A stretch of DNA of 64,000 nt from Fistulifera solaris. Taxonomy: Eukaryota. This document shows, piece by piece, positions 24,717 to 60,565 of the stretch; positions within the stretch are counted from its first letter, which is position 1, and every line of letters begins with the position of its first letter. Under the pieces are notes generated by a model, which was not told the DNA's origin, did not search any database, and saw nothing but the letters and a program-made list of their open reading frames with translations. Made by a program: the position numbers and the translations under genes. The DNA is taken from contig AP026125.1 of assembly GCA_030295235.1 (NCBI GenBank), positions 1,798,001 through 1,862,000 of the forward strand. Reading direction: 5' to 3'.

Positions 24717-24787
24717 ATATTTTTCACGTCTCCAGAAAATGTGGGCGAGTGGTATTTTCACGTGTTTAGAAAATGTGGGGGAGCAGT
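24717..24787. repeat. Left part of ~30-bp minisatellite interrupted by the copia element
   Basis: Units of tattttcacg(t/c)(g/c)tccagaaaatgtggg-like sequence; the array continues after the 3' LTR. Confidence 0.85.
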
Positions 24788-25155
24788 TGTTGAATAACCA
24801 GTCACGCACGTGTCTACAATAAACGGAAAGACATGTGCACTACATATTACATGATACTGAAAACGAGAAGCGAACAGCAATCTACCTAATCCCGAATCCT
24901 CGTTATTCAAAGAACTAACAGCTGCCGAAGGAACCTAAACTATTACTGACAAAGAACAATGCCAGCAGCTTCTGCATATTCTACATGAATCAAATGAGAA
25001 CAATGAAGAGACAAACAAGAATTCAAATCAATAGGATAACTTCATTTACTAGCTCATAATTTTAACAAGCAATCCGTTTGCAGCAATCCGTTTGCACCAA
25101 GTTAATTTTGTCAAGCCCAATCCATAGACGGCTCCGGCACCTGTGGATTTCAAGA
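24788..25155 (+). repeat. 5' LTR (368 bp)
   Basis: Starts tgttgaa and ends ttcaaga; contains a 14-bp tandem duplication agcaatccgtttgc at 25068-25095; no difference from the 3' LTR seen by eye. Confidence 0.95.
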
Positions 25156-25171
25156 CGCTTCCTCTGCGCCA
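25156..25171 (+). promoter_or_regulatory. Putative non-canonical primer-binding site complementary to the D-arm of initiator tRNA-Met
   Basis: cgcttcctctgcgcca directly follows the 5' LTR; its reverse complement TGGCGCAGAGGAAGCG fits the conserved eukaryotic tRNA-iMet segment TGGCGCAGNGGAAGCG (recalled, not searched). Confidence 0.65.
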
Positions 25172-25219
25172 AGTGACCATAAAGCTCCGCACTTTATAAC
25201 AACTACTTCGTTCGACGAA

Positions 25220-26493
25220 ATGGCTGACGCTAACGCCAACAACGCCAACCAAAACCTCGCTGCTCCCGTAGCAGTAGCCTTTGCTCTAAGCCCGGCTTGA
25301 GCACCCACCATGTCATCGACTTCTCTACTCGCGAAGGATCTCGCCTCTCACGAAATGGCGACCAAGCAGATTGGAGATGAACGATTCGACTGCGATCCCG
25401 GTCGCATGTCGCTCCTTCATCGAAGGACTTAGCATCCGTGCTAGCAACTTTGGTTGGGGGCCGATCTTCAACATCCCCGACGATATCGAAGCCATCGAGC
25501 CTGTCCAGAACACCACCAACCTCCTCTCCAACTACGGAGACATTACTTTGGAGCACATTCAAGCTCACGCACGCACATACATCGGTACCCAGACCCGTGC
25601 AGCGCATAAGACTCCTACATGGCAGCCAACTGCCTCATTTCCTCTCTAAGCCCAGCCGCCATCGATCGCATCACGATCTGGCGGGACCAGTACACCTTTG
25701 ATGGTATCCCCAGCGGGCCTTGCCTGTTCAAAGTCATCATCCGTGAGACTTACATTGACACAAATGCAACGGTCACGCACATTCGCACGCAGCTCTCCAG
25801 TTTGGACCAGTACTTACCTAAGATTCAGCACAACATCACCAAGATGAACCAGCAAGTTAAACAGCTATTGGAAGGCTTGGCAGCGCGAGGGAGAAACCAC
25901 AAACGATCTTCTTGCGAATCTCTTTAAGGGTTACAAGGCAGCCTCCGATCGCACCTTTGTCAACTACATCCTGAAGAAAGAAGAAGATTACCACGAAGGT
26001 CTTCCGATGACACCGGATCACCTCATGAACCTAGCAGATAACAAGTACAAGACCTTGGTACAACTTTCTCTGTGGAACGCCTTCGCCGGAAGAAGAAAAG
26101 ATTCTCGCATTGGAGGCAAAACTCCAAAAGTTGGAAAGCAAAAGAAGACCGAAAACAAGCCAAAGCATCAAGCCAAAAGCAAACCCCAGCGCAACAGAAA
26201 CACTCCCAAGCCAGACTGGATGTCGGTGCCTCCAAAGGACGAACCCAAGCAGAAAACAGTTGAGGGAAGCGAGTACTTCTGGTGCGAAAAGCATAACTCA
26301 TGGGGCAAACACAAGACGGTTGATTGTCGCCAAGCCAACATCCGCAGACCGGGAGTCTCCAAACCCGAAGGCGAAGAAAGAGCAACTCGTCAAAGCGCTA
26401 GCTGCACTCCTCAATGACAGCGACAGCGATGAGGACGACAACGTAGATGAGTATTCGGACGCAAGTGACAACGAAGCAAGCGACAGTGAATGA
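25220..26493 (+). CDS. gag: Copia gag (frameshifted in this sequence)
   Basis: ATG at 25220; PSGPCLFKVII, NLFKGY, LMNLADNKYK, knuckle WCEKHNSWGKHKTVDC, acidic tail ending in TGA at 26491-26493. Confidence 0.8.
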
Positions 26494-29400
26494 CTTACCA
26501 AGTCTATCTGGCGGTACCTCAGCTTCAGCTGGGACTGGCTTCTTGCCTGCACCGCAACCCTGATCTACTGCTTGTTCTTTGACCACGTTAATGAGATTGC
26601 GACTCGCTACATTCCTAAACGACTTCGAAAGGAAACCATTAGTAAGCAATTGAAAACACTTGGTCAACGGGTCTGCAGTCCAATTCAGACTTACCTGGTC
26701 CGCATTCACACAGTATGGATACGAAATTCCACGGCCCGAACGGTCCTTCACAAGAGGCTAAAAGCAGCAAGGCAGGCACTCTACTTTTCTCATACACCAC
26801 TCATTCGATTCCGCAATCCAATAGCCAGATGGTGGAGACAATGGAAACTGCGTCAAAGGAGATATGTGTTAATGATGACAGCGATGTGTTACAGTGCAAA
26901 CGCGGTCCCACAAGTACTTACCAAGACTTTTGATACCGATTCAGTTCCAATTGGTGTCGACAATAGATGCTCAGCGTGCATCTCCCATGTCGCGACGGAC
27001 TTTGTTGGAAAACTACAGGAGACCAACTTGATTATCAAAGGCTTTGGCGGTAACCGCACCAGCAATGTGATGAAAGGCACTCTGAAATGGTCATGGGAAA
27101 ATGATGAGGGCAAGATGACATCATTCACGATTCCAAACTCATACTACGTACCAGACGGCAAAGTTCGACTTCTATCACCGCAACATTGGGCAAAATACAC
27201 CGGAAACAAACTCTCTGGATGTGATACCACAAGCAAACATGCGATTCTGTATTGGGGCAGCAACAAGAAAACAATTCCGATTGATCCACGTTCAAACGTT
27301 GCAACGTTTACTCCGCCCCCTGGCTGCCGCGAATTTCGAAACCTTCTGCTTCAAGCATCGATTCCTGACGATGAAGACGACAATCCGCTTTGTTTCGATG
27401 CAAACACAGTCGACACAACACCTTCAGAGGGAGCGAGCGCAGATTCAGAGGGAGCTGAACCATTTCGCAGCCGCACAGTTGACTTCGAGTTCGACGGCAA
27501 TCAACAACAACACAAACTGGTCATACAGGAAAGTGACACAACAACAAGTCAAACTGTTCCAGCAGCCGAATTGCTCACTTACCATCGTCTTTATGGTCAT
27601 GCGCCGATGGAGAAGCTTCAGGAATTGGCAAAGCAAGGAGTTATTCCAGCCGACTTGCAACGTGTCCGACACCGGTGTGCACCGCCTGTTTTTACGGAAA
27701 AGCAACAAAGCGTCAGTGGCGAACGAAACCAGCTAAACAAAGCAAAACCCTTCACAAGCCTACTCACCCCGGCGAAGTTGTTGCTGTGGATCAAATGGTA
27801 TCACCCACGCCCTGGCCTCATTGCGCAGCTCACAGGAATCTTGACGACAAAACGCTATTTGTACCACCGTCTTCGCCGACCTTTATTCCAGCTTGAGTTA
27901 TGTTCACCTGCAAAAGACACAAAGTGCGAGTGAGACCTTGGAAGCAAAACACGCTTTTGAACAATACGCTCGAAATTGTGGAGTCGACAAGATCAAACAC
28001 TATCATGCCGACAATGGAATTTTCAATTCGAACACTTGGGTCAACGATTGCGTAACAAACGGTCAGGGACTTTCCTTTGCAGGAGTTGGAGCACATCATC
28101 AAAATGGCAAAGCTGAACGCCGCATAGGACAATTGCAAGAACTCACTCGAGCGATGCTGATCGATGCACAACACAAGTGGCCGCAAGCCATCACAACTCA
28201 CCTGTGGCCTTATGCTTTGCGCATGGCAAACGATTCCATCAACCACATGCCAAACATGAAGCACCCTGAGCGCCGTACTCCTTATCAACTCTTCGCCAAC
28301 ACGGATATTCATTCGAATCCAATTCATTGGAAACCATTCGGTTGCCCAGTATTTGTTCTTGACGCCGCGCTTCAAGGAGGAAAAAGTCGGATATTTCACA
28401 AATGGCGTCTGCGCTCACATCTCGGAATTTATTTGGGACGTTCTCCAGTACACAGCCGTTCTGTCGCCCTGGTACTGAACCCAGACACAGGACTCGTCAG
28501 TCCCCAGTTTCACGTCAAATTTGATTCGAAATTCCAAACTGTTCCGGACCTTGCGAAAACATGTTTGTGGCAACTCAAAGCCGGTTTTATTGCCGCTCCA
28601 AGCGCAAATCCTCAACAATCCACGCCTACATTGTCGGATACACCTACTACTACACCCGCCGACCTCTCTCCGTTACCGATGCCGCTGCCGACCGCGCACC
28701 ACCTGATGACAATGTTCCGTCCACCGATCGTCAACCTGAACCACTTTCCTCTCCATCGCCACCACAATCTCAGAGGGAGAGACGCAGCACTCGCCAACGA
28801 CGTCCCGTTACTCGATTAATAGAGATCATGATCGCAATGTTCGCTAGTGAACTCAGTCAATCATCGGCCGACATCAAAGGGGAACTTTTGCTTACGAATC
28901 TCTTCAAACCGCCTCAGCAAAACTCAATCCACCGGATCCATTCTATGTTTTCAAAACGAGCGCCGACCCCGATTCAATGTATTTGCATCAAGCTCGCAAA
29001 CAACCCGATTGGCCGGAGTTTTCCAAAGGCATGGACGTAAATCGAGGATCAAATGGCAAATGGAAATTTCTCATTGTTTCCAAGGAGTCAAGTTCCAGAG
29101 GGAGCAACGATTCTACCAACAGTATGGCAACTTCGTCGCAAACGAGACATTATGACACGCGAAGTCAAGAAGTGGAAAGCGACTGACTATTGATGGGTCA
29201 CGGATGAAATATGGTCGCGACTATGAATTGACCTACTCTCCGGTTGCTAATTGGACTTCAATCCGCTTGTTACTAGCAATGGTGATCATACATGGTTGGC
29301 ATACGAAGCAACTCGATTATGTTCAGGCATTTCCTCAGGCCAGCGACAAAGAAATTTATCTGTCCATTCCGAAAGGATATACAATACACGGAGCATCCCC

Positions 29401-30569
29401 GGACGATTATGTTCTGAAAGTCCACAAGAATGTTTATGGAGCAAAGGATGCAAGTCGAACATGGTTCCTTTATTTGCGAAAGAAACTATTTGAGATCGGT
29501 TTCAAGCAATCGGAATACGACGAATGTGTGTTTTACTACAAGAGCACGATGTATGTTCTATATACCGGCGACAGTATTCTTGGAGGTCCTAATGAAAAGG
29601 AAATTGAGGAAATTATTGAAAAGATGAAACAGATCAAACTAGACATTACAGTTGAGGGAGATTTATCGGATTTTCTGGGAGTTAATATCAACAGGATCGG
29701 TGAATCAACAATTGAATTGAAACAGCCACAACTCATCGACTCGATAATCAAAGACATGAAATTCGACCAGAAGGAAGTTAAAACAAAGGATATTCCAATG
29801 GCATCATCGAAGCTACTTTCGCAGCATCCCAAATCGCCGCCATTTGACAAAAGTTTTCATTACACTTCAGTCATCGGAAAAATGAACTACCTGACGCGAG
29901 GATCCAGGCCAGACATCGCCTATGCGGTACATCAATGCGCACGCTTTGCATCAAACCCAAGGAAAGAACATGGAGATGCAATGAGATGGCTTACAAAGTA
30001 TCTGATAGGGACAAGGGACAAAGGAATGATTCTGCACCCAGACGTCTCTAGAAGCTTGGAAGTTCATGTCGACGCCCGATTTCGCAGGCAATTGGGATCC
30101 AGAGATCGCTTTTGAGGACCTAAACACAGCTCGCTCCAGACACGGATTTTTCATCACCTATGCCGGAGTATTGTTGCATCACAAGAGTCAACTTCAGACA
30201 GAGATTGCATTGAGTTCCACCGAGAGCGAATTCACCGGATTGAGCTACGCACTCAGAGATGCAATTCCTATCATGAACACTTTGAAGGAGATGCAATCAC
30301 TCGGATTTGATGTGAAAGAGTGGAGGCCAAAAGTCCATTGCAAAGTATTTGAGGACAACTCGGGAGCTCTGGAAATCGCAAAAGTTCCGAAGGCTCGACC
30401 AAGGACGAAGCATTTGAATGTCAAACTGCACCATTTTCGGTCATACGTTGACAGCGGAGATATAACAATCCACAAAATCGATACTCTCGAACAAGTTGCG
30501 GATATTCTAACGAAACCACTCACATTTGATCTCTTTGCCAAACATCGGAAGGCAATTCTCGGATGGTGA
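26494..30569 (+). CDS. pol: Copia pol: protease, integrase, reverse transcriptase, RNase H (multiple frameshifts)
   Basis: PR IGVDNRCSAC; IN HRLYGH..CTAC, VAVDQ, YHADNG, NGKAERRI; RT QLDYVQAF, YTGDS; RH STESE, EDNSGA, ADILTKPL. Confidence 0.92.
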
Positions 30570-30580
30570 GATCGCAGTTC

Positions 30581-30589
30581 GAGAGGGAG
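30581..30589 (+). promoter_or_regulatory. Polypurine tract
   Basis: gagagggag immediately 5' of the 3' LTR. Confidence 0.85.
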
Positions 30590-30957
30590 TGTTGAATAAC
30601 CAGTCACGCACGTGTCTACAATAAACGGAAAGACATGTGCACTACATATTACATGATACTGAAAACGAGAAGCGAACAGCAATCTACCTAATCCCGAATC
30701 CTCGTTATTCAAAGAACTAACAGCTGCCGAAGGAACCTAAACTATTACTGACAAAGAACAATGCCAGCAGCTTCTGCATATTCTACATGAATCAAATGAG
30801 AACAATGAAGAGACAAACAAGAATTCAAATCAATAGGATAACTTCATTTACTAGCTCATAATTTTAACAAGCAATCCGTTTGCAGCAATCCGTTTGCACC
30901 AAGTTAATTTTGTCAAGCCCAATCCATAGACGGCTCCGGCACCTGTGGATTTCAAGA
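30590..30957 (+). repeat. 3' LTR (368 bp)
   Basis: Same sequence as 24788-25155. Confidence 0.95.
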
Positions 30958-31130
30958 AGCAGTATTTTCACTTGTCCAGAAAATGTGGGCAAGGTGGTAT
31001 TTTCACGTCTCCAGAAAATGTGGGCTTGTGAAATTTTCACGTGTCCAGAAAATGTGGGAGTGCAGTATTTTCACTTGTCCAGAAAATGTGGGAGCGTGGT
31101 TTTTCACTTGTTCAGAAAGTTTAGGAGCGC
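30958..31130. repeat. Right part of ~30-bp minisatellite (5-6 units)
   Basis: Repeated gtattttcac(t/g)tgtccagaaaatgtggg. Confidence 0.9.
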
Positions 31131-31310: not shown

Positions 31311-32913
31311 ATGAAGATTTCCACCCCGGAAGATGACCATCATGAAGATAAGTGCAAACTCAGGAAGGAACAGAATGATGCGAAAGACCTTCTCGAAAGA
31401 GCTCATGATATTCTCAAAGAAGCCGACGAATCTTACATTGCGAATAACACCGGACCTCGTCGGCGATACCCAACTTTTGATTTATGCGAGATTGAAATAG
31501 GCCCTTTACTGGGGGTCGGAGGCTTCTGCCAAGTTTTTGAAATCAAGGAATTCCGACTTAATGAGCTAGAGCAAATACAAGAAGAAGGTGACGAGACAAA
31601 TGAAAGCAGTACATTAAACACAAAAGACGAGAGCAGCGCTCCATCAAAAGGCGCAACGAAACGCGGTGACAAACGGGTCGATTCTTCCCTAATGAACGAC
31701 GATGATACGCATTACGATATAAGAAGTGCACGCACCACCATGGCGCGACTTGTTCGTAGAAATGGAAGTGCTCGCTATGCCATCAAAAGGCTTCATGAGG
31801 ACTTGAACGAAATCGAACGGGCGCGCGGAATAGTCGATCTAGCTCTCGAGGCCAAATATCTCTCGGTTTTGTGGCATCCTAATATCAGTAAGTATCGTTT
31901 GCTGCGAATGCGCGGTTCCTCTGATGGTCGCCTCACTATTCCGTGTCAAGTAAAAATGAGAGCAATCGCTTCGGGGTCCTCTCTTGACCCCAAATTCTGC
32001 ATCATCATGGATCGCCTCTACGATATATTGGACCATAGGTTTGAAAAATGGGTAGTAACAAAACAAAGGAATAAAGGAGGCTTATTCGGAAGGGGTGCAA
32101 ATCGCGAGCGCTTACACGAATTACTGGTCGAACGCTTAACCGTTGCGTATGATCTGGCTTCGGCGCTCTGTTACATGCACGAGCACCATCTTGTGTACCG
32201 AGACCTGAAAAAGGTACGTTTGTTTTGTGGTCGGTCGAAAGCGGAGAGGAAATAGCTCTTACCTATCTTGCTCCTCATGCTCTGGTCTCTGGACCATTTC
32301 CTTCGATTGTGTCTCTTTCTGGCCATCCCTGGTGATGATCGATCGCGGAAACCCGAACTAAAAGGAAAATCTTGGCTTCGATATAAGGAATGATTTGAAA
32401 GTTTTTGATTTCGGGTTGTGCAAGACGTTGACACCTTCTTTGAAGGCACGCGACGAGAAAGGCAAGGAGGTGTACGGTTTCAACCTTACTCCCCGAACTG
32501 GCTCTATACCATTCATGGCACCCGAAGTGGCGGAATGCAATCCATACGATACACAATGTGATGTCTTTTCCTTTGCCGTCTTGCTGTGGGAAATCATGTC
32601 GTTGAAACCTGTGTTTGATAACTATTCCCGTCGCGAGTTTTATTTGCGTGTCGTGAAACATCAAGAGAGACCCGTGGTTCCACCACGAAGCTGTCCGCCA
32701 CTCGTTCGAGTGGCTGTGAAAGAAGGGTGGGATCACGATCCACAAAAGCGGCCCAACATGAAGCGAATGGCTGCATTGATCCGGGGAGATCTGAACGATT
32801 TGACGAATGATCCGACGATACGAGATCGAACAACACACATGAAAAATCGATCCAGCCACAGTCAAAGGAATATCATGCGTAGTTTGACAACAAAAAGCTC
32901 TCATGGTCTCTGA
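31311..32913 (+). CDS. Ser/Thr protein kinase (TKL-like), paralogue 1
   Basis: LGVGGFCQV, YAIK, HPNI, YRDLK, VFDFG, GSIPFMAPE, DVFSF; introns ~31888-31950 and 32213-32364. Confidence 0.92.
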
Positions 32914-33920: not shown

Positions 33921-35524
33921 ATGAGTGGCGATGATGATTTAGCGAAGCGCCTATTGCAGAAAGCGGATAGAATACTCAAAGAAGTAGATGAGGCGTACAT
34001 CATCAAACAACGAGGGCATCATCAAGAGCCATGCCGACGTTTCGACCCGAAGAACTTTCTTTGGGGAAAACGCTCGGCACGGGGGCTTTGGGATTGTCAG
34101 CGAAATATCCAAATTTACTTTAGATGAAGATGAACCTTCCGAAGAGCTTCCTGTCGATACAGCAGGCGAGGAGCATCCAATCACTTTGGAAAATCCACAA
34201 CAACCCAACAACAACATACAAAGAACGGTCAGTTTGGAGGACGGAATACCAGGAACTTTCGTGGAAGTTGTCGACCGACCAGAAGAATTAACGATGAATG
34301 ATCATGTTCATTACGACGTGAAAAAGGCTAGAGAGTTCATGGCGAATCGGTGTGTGCGAAATGGTAAAGCACGGTATGCGATTAAGCGCCTTCATAAGGC
34401 TCTCACGCCCGTCGAAAAGGCCCGGGGATGATTGATCTGGCAATTGAAGCCAAATATTTATCTACAGTGTGGCATCCGAATATCAGTAAGTGCTACGGAT
34501 TGTGTCGTGCTGGATTTGTTGTTGGACACAAAAGTGCTCAACTCGTCTCGTTGACTAGTCAAGCTACGAGGCGTCGCCAAGGGCAACATGGTGGACCCGG
34601 ATTTCTTCATCATCATTGATCGACTCTACATGACACTAGATGTTCAAATAAAGGAGTGGGCTGCGAATTTTAAAAGCAAGAAGGGATCGTTGTTTGGGAT
34701 CGGAAAAGATAAGGATGGACTGAAGGGTTTGCTGATCGACCGATTAACGGTGGCCTACGATCTCGCTGCTGCTTTCTTTTATCTTCACGAGAACCGGTAA
34801 GCATAAAACGCGTGATGCGTGTTACTTTGACATGAGAAAAGGTTTCAATGGACTGACCTCGCGCTTTTACATTGACGCTTTCAGAGTGGTGTACAGGGAC
34901 ATTAAGCGTAAGTTATTGTCTCGACAGTTCTTGCTCCATCATAGTTGTTCATCTTACCTGGGATGATTTCCGGATCATAAAGCCGAGAATATCGGTTTTG
35001 ATGCAAGAGGAGACTGTAAGCTTTTCGATTTTGGATTGTGCAAGTCATTATCACCGAATTTGAAGGCAGCGAATGGAGGGTATGGTTATAAGTTGACGGG
35101 AAGAGCAGGGAGCCTGCCGTATATGGCACCGGAAGTGGTGCGCATGGAGACGTACGACACCAAATGTGATGTATTTTCGTTTGCTATTCTCTTTTGGGAA
35201 ATCATGAGTTTAAAGGAATCGTTTCAATGGATGAATCCAACTAGTTTTGTGGAGCATGTGGTTGTGGAGAAAACACGGCCAAAGATTGCGAAAAGCTGGC
35301 CACCACTGACGAGGTTATTACTTCCTGAGGCATGGGACGACGATCCGCGCAAACGTCCCGATATGAAACGCGTGGCAGTAATGATTCGCGCTGACTTGAA
35401 TGATGTTTCAAGTAGCGAGGATGTCTTGCATCGAACGGATCACATGTTAAATCGATCACGTCATTCCGCGCGTGAAATGTTTGAAAGTTCTGACGTTGGC
35501 GGCACTAGTTATCGTCGTAAATGA
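33921..35524 (+). CDS. Ser/Thr protein kinase (TKL-like), paralogue 2
   Basis: GHGGFGIV, YAIK, HPNI, VVYRDIK micro-exon 34885-34907, LFDFG, GSLPYMAPE; introns ~34486-34563, 34797-34884 and 34908-34982; frameshifts near 34065-34085. Confidence 0.9.
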
Positions 35525-39121: not shown

Positions 39122-39662
39122 GATTCCAGAATTTCTGGAACTAAACCATACTGTACCAAAAACCCCGGATCCAGAATTTCTGGACCAACCACAGAATTTC
39201 TGTATGACGAATTGCAATGATATTTCGAATTACTGGAACGGCCAAACACCTGGTCCAGAATTTCTAGACCGACTACAGATTTTCTGGATTGATAAATAAC
39301 TACAACGACATTCCAGATTTTCTGGAACGACCAAACACCTGGTCCAGAATTTCTGGACCAATCACAGATTTTCTGTATGATGAATTACAACCAATTCTAG
39401 GATTTCTGGAAAGCCAACCACCTGGTCTAGAATTTCAGGAACGACCAAACACCTGGTCCAGAATTTCTGGACCGACCACAGATTTTCTGTATGATAAATT
39501 ACAACGATATTCCAGAATTTCTGGAACGACCAAACACCTGGTCCAGAATTTCTGGACCAATACCAGAGTTTCTGTATGATGAATTACAACGACATTCCAG
39601 AATTTCTGGAACGGCCAAACACCTTGGTCCATAATTTCTGGACATGCCACAGTATTTCTGTA
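39122..39662. repeat. Complex tandem array built from the palindrome tccagaa-t-ttctgga, higher-order unit ~75 bp
   Basis: Recurrent aacacctggtccagaatttctggacc..cagattttctgtatga..aattacaacga..ttccagaatttctggaacg. Confidence 0.9.
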
Positions 39663-39808
39663 AATTGAAATAGACTATGGTTTACCTTTTACGCGGGCAC
39701 GCAGATGACGACGCACCCCGCAGTTTTTCCGTCGATCGATCGGCCGACCATGACTTTTTCAGTCTTTCAAATAAATGACTTTTTTATTCTTTTTACAGCC
39801 ATCGATCA

Positions 39809-58686: not shown

Positions 58687-59435
58687 AACCGAACAACAAA
58701 GGGTTCCGTTTGGCGTCTCTCGCATCCGTCCATTGCCATTCAACTGCGAATATGATTATAAATACGGGAACAGAAAGTCGCAACAATGATGATTACGAAC
58801 TACTTGTTGAAAGTTTCCTTTATTTTCACGTCAAAGATCCGAGGATCGACACCTTGAATTTTTACTATCCGACGGAGTGTCGGTTTACGCCAGCCAAGAC
58901 TGGATTGTACAGTAGTCATGAATCATCATCATGAACCGAACAACAAAAGGGTTCCGTTTTGCGTCTCTCGCATCCGTCCATTGTCATTCAACTGCGAATA
59001 TGATTATAAATACGGGAACATAAAGTCGCAACAATGATGATTATGAACTACTTGTTGAAAGTTTCCTTTATTTTCACGTCAAAGATCCGAGGATCGACAC
59101 CTTGAATTTTTACTATCCGACGGAGTGTTGGTTTACGCCAGCCAAGACTGGATTGTACAGTAGTCATGAATCATCATCATGAACCGAACAACAAAGGGTT
59201 CCGTTTGGCGTCTCTCGCGTCCGTCCATTGCCATTCAACTGCGAATATGATTATAAATACGGGAACATAAAGTCGCATCAATGATGATTACGAACTACTT
59301 CTTGAAAGTTTCCTTTATTTTCACGTCAAAGATCCGAGGATCGACATCTTGAATTTTTACTATCCGACGGAGTGTTGGTTTACCAGCCAAGACTGGATTG
59401 TATTGTAGTCATGAATCATGAACCGAACAACAAAC
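58687..59435. repeat. Three tandem copies of a ~247-bp unit
   Basis: aaccgaacaacaaa recurs at 58687, 58934, 59182 and 59421, with near-identical sequence in between. Confidence 0.95.
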
Positions 59436-60565
59436 AGGGTGTGAAAGCGCGATGACAATTCACCGACAAAAATCAAGGTTACTCCTCTGGTGGAGATTTG
59501 AAACGGTTCAATGTCGTCAAAGCCATCCCTTTTGAAAACTTTGTACTCGATATGTCGCGCAGAGAAAGAGAGGGACAAAAGACAACGCGGCTTAAAATTC
59601 CAGCTGTTCGTTTCCAACGAGATATAAGCCATGGCATTCTTTAGTTCGGAAAGGTGTTTAAGATCCAAGGTGGAATACGCTGAGCCAGCGTTGCCGTACG
59701 TGTTTTTTTGCAAGAGAGTGTTCCAAACTCGCTTGTTCGTTTGGAGAGCGCCTTAGTAAAAGCTAGTCCTCCGTCTTGAAACATGCATTCAAGATCGACC
59801 TGCAAAGGATCCGGATGCGATGCCAATGCGATCGATTCTTCTGTGCAAAGTAAGCACCTTCGGTCCAGACGAAGAAGTCTTCGTGGATTTGTTTGAGTGA
59901 ATTTGTGGAGAAACTCAGACCTTATAAAAGCGGGATACGCCATGTGATCATCTAACGTACTGTATTCGCTCCAGATTCGTACTGTTTTCCCTTGTTCGTC
60001 CTTCAGGCAGAGAAGTTGTCCCGCGGTGCGTGATACGGCGTCTTTGGATACCCCATATACATGTACCCTCTTTTGCTCGAAATCGATGCTCATGTTGGCT
60101 GCTCGAAACTTTGATGGGTAACGAGGAACTGTCTTTGGCATCTTCTTCGTCACAATGAAGCTTTCTCCGTCCATCCACACCAGATGATTTCGATTCATTC
60201 TTTTACAAGTTCCTGGACGCTGAGAGGATCACGAACGTGTCGGTAAAAGTGTATCTTTGAACTATATTTGGTCGCGCGGAACTGGTTGATGAGGGTCGTC
60301 ATGTCTTCGTCAAACGCCTCGTGCGGAACCATTTCAAACCAGCATGAATTCATTTTTACTTGATGCACTCGTTACTGTCTTTCTTTTCACTCGCAATAAA
60401 CACACTCGCGTCAAATATATCAGCAATGCTGTGTCCGTGGAGTTGCGATGAGGAGTGTTCATCATCTGCTTGCCAAAGTTCCTTCTGGGCCTTTTTCAGT
60501 TCTTCGAATGATGCACTGCGCGCGCCATTGCGATTGATGTTTCGGGAATAAGGCAACCGTGTCAC
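59290..60565 (-). pseudogene. Fragmented hypothetical gene, lineage-specific family
   Basis: Chain of minus-strand ORFs 60356-60565, 59641-60198 and 59360-59713 running into the repeat array; no catalytic motif recognised. Confidence 0.45.

Follow-up and report, generated by a model that had tools for sequence, protein, structure and literature searches.

A putative primer binding site complementary to the D arm of initiator tRNA-Met in a Ty1/copia retrotransposon of the diatom Fistulifera solaris and its relatives

From which primer does an LTR retrotransposon start reverse transcription when its 5' LTR is not followed by a site for the 3' end of a tRNA? This question is raised by an element in Fistulifera solaris, situated in the 64-kb stretch of DNA that was analysed here as a whole and that is referred to below as the window. 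An earlier, sequence-only reading of the window had described a copia element without a TGG-type primer binding site (PBS) after its 5' LTR, and had proposed that the bases found there instead match the D arm of initiator tRNA-Met (tRNAiMet), with a short 5' tRNA fragment as the primer. The features of the element are as follows.

24782..24787, no strand: target-site duplication, left copy, AGCAGT, with the matching hexamer right after the 3' LTR
24788..25155, plus strand: 5' LTR, 368 bp, TGTTGAAT...ATTTCAAGA, with 368/368 identity to 30590-30957
25156..25171, plus strand: putative primer binding site CGCTTCCTCTGCGCCA, adjoining the LTR with zero spacer, conserved, and complementary to a tRNA
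25156-25169, plus strand: invariant core of the PBS; 25170 lies opposite tRNA G9 and 25171 opposite U8
25172..30580, plus strand: leader and gag-pol coding region, from three-frame translation and the ORF list, in several frames with frameshifts and in-frame stops
28325..28531, plus strand: integrase C-terminal SH3-like domain, upstream of the reverse transcriptase (PF25597, E 3e-4, a weak match under the curated cut-off)
29174..29800, plus strand: copia-type reverse transcriptase RVT_2 (PF07727, E 2.2e-30, 106.5 bits against a cut-off of 31.6)
30581..30589, plus strand: polypurine tract GAGAGGGAG, a purine run directly 5' of the 3' LTR
30590..30957, plus strand: 3' LTR, identical to the 5' LTR
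30958..30963, no strand: target-site duplication, right copy, AGCAGT, matching the left copy

Positions 24788-30957 are confirmed as one Ty1/copia (Pseudoviridae) LTR retrotransposon. The two LTRs are in direct orientation and identical at all 368 positions, the hexamer AGCAGT, which adjoins both the 5' LTR and the 3' LTR on their outer sides, forms a 6-bp target duplication, and excision of the element together with one hexamer in silico restores a 34-bp satellite unit. The same domain order, i.e. gag_pre-integrs, SH3_retrovirus and RVT_2, is found in the relative P0001, and in the relative L158 the stretch AAGAGGGAG precedes the TGTTG start of its LTR. The element is embedded in a tandem satellite of about 34 bp (TTTTCAC.T.TCCAGAAAATGTGGG...), present at 24721-24787 and 30964-31120, from which the empty site can be rebuilt. 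Between 25221 and 30569, gag-pol is spread over three frames with several in-frame stops, yet the LTRs are identical, which could point to a trans-mobilised defective copy, to LTR homogenisation or to indel errors in the assembly. Because its coding region is broken, the window copy is non-autonomous (or affected by such indel errors), and it is therefore on its own no proof of an active mechanism. Other repeats in the window are three tandem copies of a 248-bp unit at 58698-59440 (100%, 98% and 78% identical to the reference copy), an 85-114-nt tandem repeat that occurs five times at 39209-39675 and includes CCAGAATTTCTGGA-type palindromic pieces and, just downstream of the element, a 67-nt direct repeat (31827-31893 and 34425-34491, 75% identity, 2.6 kb apart), possibly the mark of gene duplication or of a further repeat.

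What defines a PBS is its location, because the first base to be copied into DNA is the one immediately 5' of the primer-template duplex. In the window element the 5' LTR ends at 25155 with ...GGATTTCAAGA, and CGCTTCCTCTGCGCCA follows directly at 25156-25171, in agreement with what had been read from the sequence earlier. The 3' LTR ends with ...TTTCAAGA and is followed by the duplicated AGCAGT, without a PBS; since the last LTR base is present there next to AGCAGT, it belongs to U5 and lies outside the primer site. The 16-mer occurs once in the window, the rest of which holds one unrelated site with three mismatches, at 59555. No complement of the PBS block was found within the LTR when both strands were searched with up to three mismatches. 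The absence of a TGG-type PBS was likewise upheld for the window junction, and neither a 3'-end-type nor an anticodon-type PBS was found at any junction of the window element or of its 76 relatives (see below). Eight matches to TGGT[AT]GC.. do occur in the 76 loci, all of them within coding regions or an LTR. One candidate for a 3'-end-type PBS, TGGTAGCTG of L158, was rejected as it sits within the 3' LTR of that locus.

The complement of the PBS, TGGCGCAGAGGAAGCG, is exactly identical to positions 8-24 of an initiator-type tRNA-Met of Thalassiosira pseudonana, in which position 17 is absent and TGT follows the 16-mer. Two identical tRNA-Met(CAT) genes with a GGATCGAAACC T loop are present in this diatom, namely chr_17_2 and chr_22_1 (PMC4156623, supplementary file 4). 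The pairing with about positions 8-24 of a eukaryotic tRNAiMet that had been proposed is hereby matched by a diatom gene over all 16 nucleotides, and the tRNA concerned combines a CAT anticodon with initiator marks, i.e. a GATCGAAAC-type T loop. For the RNA duplex, -33.2 kcal/mol is predicted over 16 nt and -28.3 kcal/mol over 14 nt. An extension of the pairing beyond U8 was rejected, as PBS position 17 has an A in 27 of 43 junctions, which is within the A-rich background. Human tRNAiMet oligonucleotides match at 15 of the 16 positions, the sole difference being a D-loop base, C for A; this C is found in the oligonucleotides of PMC1797187 and in the northern probe of PMC9262602.

No tRNA gene was identified in the 64-kb window by ARAGORN or Rfam. 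When TGGCGCAGAGGAAGCG was scanned through viral contigs, at least 118 loci were recovered, with 132 instances among the matches listed. Among these, 104 of the 132 were situated in tRNA-Met(CAT) genes called by ARAGORN; a single one fell in a tRNA-Ile(GAT) gene, and 27 lay outside any gene call. Within the tRNA genes the first base of the motif is at position 8, which becomes position 9 wherever ARAGORN has added one base. Both A1/T72 and the GATCGAAAC T loop were present in at least 43 of the 105 motif-holding tRNA genes among the matches listed, an undercount because the ARAGORN gene ends are shifted by one base in 36 genes. The large virus contigs L040, L034 and L028 carry initiator-type tRNA-Met genes in tandem, 7 to 10 per array. 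At seven other viral-contig loci (L044, L059, L066, L071, L101, L105 and L118), the 5' part of an initiator-like tRNA-Met gene, normal up to about position 26 or 27, is followed by about 50 nt of unrelated sequence, after which come the T arm and the acceptor stem; this break is no more than two or three bases away from G24, the primer end proposed below.

The D arm of this tRNA is not uniform among algae. The initiator D arm of Fragilariopsis cylindrus differs (TAGCTCAGAGGCAGAGT), and Emiliania huxleyi has a third form of the arm in its initiator tRNA-Met (both PMC4156623, supplementary file 4). Because the F. cylindrus arm differs, the match holds for some diatoms and not for all. No PBS matching an F. 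cylindrus-type arm was found at the junctions of the 76 loci, in a search whose query is only three changes away from the main motif and whose matches were dominated by that motif and by chance. As regards the host itself, contigs of four sequencing runs were aligned at 80% likeness to a stand-in initiator tRNA gene (L115:465-562), with matches from every run; X1, the run that best matched the window, yielded a 47-nt contig on tRNA positions 8-41, with three differences, at unlisted places, from this gene. Judging from this count, the contig rules out an F. cylindrus-type arm in the host, because at least five differences would be expected in the D arm, against three in total. As a candidate for pairing beyond U8, a one-base-shifted AGTG match to the acceptor stem of the X1 contig was judged to be possibly due to chance.

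By scanning metagenome contigs with a 31-sequence alignment we found 357 relatives of the element, from which 76 distinct loci with 47-63% RT identity were kept. The nearest named RT relatives are those of the diatoms Chaetoceros tenuissimus and Fragilaria crotonensis. Protein scans of viral contigs gave 16 pattern matches with the RT alone and 35 with an alignment, with no relative among them. The 14-nt core CGCTTCCTCTGCGC, with up to two mismatches allowed, was present in 47 of the 76 loci, at the junction between LTR and internal region, i.e. the conservation in sister elements that the sequence-only reading had named as a check on its proposal. In the total of 381,165 nt of these loci, 50 instances lie on the coding strand and none on the opposite strand, where our own arithmetic gives a chance expectation of about 1.2 per strand; the presence of the core at the junctions is beyond chance.

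After merging junctions with flanks at least 80% alike and adding that of the window, 43 distinct junctions remained. Each of these has zero spacing between the LTR end (...CA or ...GA) and the core. The last LTR base is A in 43/43, preceded by C in 41 and G in 2 at position -2 and by A in 40 at position -3. Within the core, PBS positions 1-7 and 9-13, i.e. 12 of 14, are invariant in all 43 junctions, while position 8 is T in 35, C in 7 and G in 1, and position 14 is C in 39/43. Pairwise likeness amounts to 96% in the core versus 30% in the 58 nt upstream and 28% in the 44 nt downstream; the former value is somewhat inflated by selection on the core. Strand, position and zero spacing played no part in the selection. 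Immediately downstream, AAGAAC or AGAAC occurs 1-3 nt after the PBS in the otherwise divergent loci L123, L125, L131, L134, L144, L149, L154 and L185, and could represent either another conserved element of the leader or a trait of a subfamily.

Of the 29 loci that lack the core, most are contigs too short to include a junction. In the window element, 4,024 nt separate the PBS from the RT match downstream of it, and another 875 nt lead from the RT match to the end of the 3' LTR; by this geometry only L133, L158, L173, L175 and L193 reach far enough. L193 is a 48th locus with the motif, truncated by the contig end, and L133 has a degenerate CGCTTCC... at the expected distance, while L158, L173 and L175 gave no core match with up to two mismatches despite sufficient reach. 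According to a quick IQ-TREE analysis of the RT (77 rows, none dropped), motif-bearing loci are distributed over all major branches. The motif-less L126 has an RT identical to that of the motif-bearing L124, and motif-less contigs also stand beside motif-bearing near-copies elsewhere on the tree (L173 and L193 with L166, L180 with L184, L161 with L154 and L133 with L134).

Beyond the core, the two remaining positions of the PBS behave differently from each other. Position 15, opposite G9 of the tRNA, is fully degenerate (C 9, A 14, G 9 and T 11 in the 43 junctions), while position 16, opposite U8, is A in 39/43 (binomial p 4e-10 versus a background of 45% A). Mammalian tRNAiMet bears m1G9, which is incapable of Watson-Crick pairing, according to an excerpt of PMC11347157; in diatom tRNAiMet the same modification is assumed here. 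Near-identical copies share their base at position 15 (L127/L128, L131/L132, L152/L153, L169/L170 and L192/L194) and more distant relatives differ in it (L184/L188, L150/L160 and L147/L172), from which it follows that this base is inherited from the template of the parent element and not from the tRNA. Consequently, the 14-nt core looks like the copy of a primer that stops at a methylated base, and the degeneracy opposite G9 together with the A opposite U8 would support, as a second and independent signal, a mature modified tRNA. Position 8, which lies opposite a D-loop base, has three forms; on the quick RT tree its C form needs at least four changes, which fits re-copying from host tRNAs differing at that base, or recurrent mutation.

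Taken as a minus-strand PBS, the 16 nt after the 5' LTR would find their partner in positions 8-24, the D arm, of the cytoplasmic initiator tRNA-Met of the host, and we consider it probable, from sequence comparison, that a 5' fragment of this tRNA primes from G24. The site would be complementary neither to the 3' CCA end nor to the anticodon arm. Minus-strand synthesis would start from a 3'-OH on G24, paired with PBS position 1; this end is placed at G24 by the zero spacing and by the recurrence of the last LTR base in the 3' LTR. The LTR of most relatives ends in an ACA that could likewise pair with U25-G26-U27 of the T. pseudonana tRNA, and in these elements complementarity alone leaves the primer end unfixed; it is the 3' LTR of the window element with its target duplication that points to G24. 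The predicted primer would be a 23-nt 5' fragment of tRNAiMet (which lacks position 17), produced by cleavage on the 3' side of the D stem, or alternatively a longer piece trimmed to G24 after annealing, and ACA pairing to U25-U27 may aid annealing in most relatives.

With classical 3'-end tRNA primers, reverse transcriptase halts at m1A58 when the primer is copied. Here plus-strand strong-stop synthesis would copy the primer from G24 to G10, i.e. 14 nt, and halt at m1G9, which would play the role of m1A58. With every cycle the 14-nt core would thereby be renewed from the tRNA and the base facing G9 would be left to vary, and that exactly 14 nucleotides are invariant would be explained by such a copy and halt. 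The proposal of D-arm priming made in the sequence-only reading is supported by both the conservation in sister elements and the match to a diatom initiator tRNA, neither check speaking against it. With more hesitation, we lean towards the wider view, again from sequence, that a species-rich clade of diatom copia elements is primed by a tRNAiMet 1-24 fragment of about 23 nt, that this would be a fourth natural mode of priming, and that the 14-nt core and its degenerate neighbor may be a fossil of the reverse transcriptase stop at m1G9.

Fragments of tRNAs are many in diatoms, according to excerpts of the published work; in F. cylindrus a bulge was the place of cleavage for only 21% of the reads that aligned to tRNA ends, and for all others the cut fell in a base-paired part. 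In the diatom small-RNA papers, to the extent available, fragments of tRNAiMet are not singled out. When the cut would be made is a separate matter, as a whole or half tRNAiMet might anneal via its D arm and lose positions 25-76 afterwards to a host or particle-associated nuclease, giving the same 3'-OH at G24. All of the D-arm pairing evidence applies equally to such trimming, a longer piece would be helped to anneal by the ACA pairing to U25-U27 in most relatives, and cleavage of the tRNA has been described for copia and Ty5, where it is attributed to RNase P in the available part of PMC5371799. On the other hand, the sequence is equally compatible with cutting before annealing, and a 50-nt 3' flap with folded anticodon and T arms would be a bulky substrate; we regard trimming after annealing as unlikely. 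Still less probable is a primer in the form of another small RNA ending in ...GCGCAGAGGAAGCG, e.g. a processing intermediate of the pre-tRNA, or a transcript from a tRNAiMet gene that is split, interrupted or a pseudogene. The seven initiator-like tRNA genes with a break near position 26 or 27 speak for such an RNA, but they are situated on virus contigs and not in diatoms, where T. pseudonana has ordinary, uninterrupted genes with the motif. Furthermore, that only the base facing G9 is degenerate, A being retained at the one facing U8, is in keeping with a mature tRNA bearing modifications.

The conserved block could also be a cis element without a role in priming (for packaging, dimerisation or tRNA capture), with priming taking place elsewhere or by the element's own RNA, as in the Tf1 type or with the hairpin of GalEa. 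There are precedents for elements of this kind: the fungal GalEa copia uses a conserved hairpin site and has no tRNA-type PBS, and self-priming TAR elements exist (excerpts of PMC5445492 and PMC6317226, respectively). In Tf1-type self-priming, the PBS is complementary to the start of the element's own transcript in the 5' LTR. Such pairing is impossible here, since the LTR lacks a complement of the block on either strand at up to three mismatches. Moreover, the block is not palindromic, its zero spacing to the LTR end in 43/43 junctions is the defining place of a PBS, and no site of the 3'-end or anticodon type offers itself at the junctions of the window or the 76 loci. This explanation seems to us the most improbable of all, and pairing of the block with the D arm of tRNAiMet is the reading retained in the following.

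Among known systems, three types of primers are distinguished in a survey of plant elements, i.e. an entire tRNA, a tRNA half produced by a cut in the anticodon stem, and self-priming (PMC6317226, in part). Internal tRNAiMet primers have precedents in the Pseudoviridae (available parts of PMC1181622, PMC5371799, PMC10886601 and PMC6317226), and anticodon-loop sites of several tRNAs, as well as a hairpin site, are described for fungal and animal copia elements in excerpts of the literature. The half-tRNA set of the hemiviruses includes, in those same excerpts, Drosophila copia and 1731, yeast Ty5 and Volvox Osser, the plant elements Osser, Bryco and Gymco-II, and the fungal Copia-28_PHord. As described there, the hemiviruses and the window element have in common that they are Ty1/copia elements with the initiator Met tRNA, with an internal 5' piece of it instead of the CCA end (predicted in the present case) and with a PBS adjoining the LTR. 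An internal 5' piece of tRNAiMet would be the primer here because the complementarity and the zero spacing require such a piece. Unlike in the window element, the PBS of the hemiviruses pairs with the anticodon arm, and in the excerpts at hand the 3'-OH of their primers is at nucleotide 40, within the anticodon stem-loop. The PBS of the window element is complementary to the D arm, with a predicted 3'-OH at 24, about 15 nt further 5', and a primer that would comprise about a third of the tRNA, and no anticodon-arm complement was found in this element or the 76 relatives. The D-arm site would work like hemivirus priming but lacks the anticodon-arm feature that defines the genus.

Canonical 3'-end priming with tRNAiMet, as in Ty1, Tnt1, most plant copia elements and metazoan GalEa (with TGGTAGCAGAGC), involves the same tRNA species, and a PBS that is recopied up to a base blocking the reverse transcriptase would be shared as well (m1A58 there, m1G9 as proposed here). 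Its PBS starting with TGG, which pairs with the acceptor and T arms of an uncut tRNA, is, in contrast, absent from the window element. The predicted primer has the length and end of the tRF-5 class, i.e. 5' tRNA fragments ending in the D stem. To our knowledge, fragments of this class are known as regulators and not as primers of reverse transcription. The CoDi elements, Ty1/copia elements of diatoms (PMC2806351, Maumus et al. 2009), are alike in host group and superfamily. They have LTRs with TG/CA ends and duplications of 4-5 bp, and the available main text of that paper mentions neither a primer binding site nor a tRNA, 'PBS' appearing once, as a wash buffer. The sequence-only reading knew of no description of this priming mode, and our search of the full-text literature, sequence strings included, likewise found no description of a D-arm PBS; most subscription journals lie outside that search, and an earlier mention is possible. 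The searches with sequence strings returned only probes, oligonucleotides and unrelated matches.

For annotation and further sampling, the site has practical consequences. LTRdigest has been used on a diatom genome with the requirement that the PBS match a tRNA 3' end (PMC7466962). Pipelines with this requirement would probably fail to credit D-arm elements, and the transposon annotation of diatoms may be biased in this respect. The invariant 14-mer can serve as an anchor for PBS-walking PCR and for counting the clade in metagenomes, and the differing initiator D arms of F. cylindrus, T. pseudonana and E. huxleyi constitute a natural co-variation test for the site.

Lastly, a D-arm site in dozens of divergent elements would add a fourth cut point to those of LTR-element primers, and a 3'-OH in the D stem raises the question of the responsible nuclease. 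The proposed stop at m1G9 is testable and would parallel the m1A58 stop of classical primers; if true, the m1G9 status of a tRNA could be read from retrotransposon DNA. Short 5' tRNA fragments, the functions of which are debated, would, if the proposal is true, gain a direct role in the replication of retroelements.
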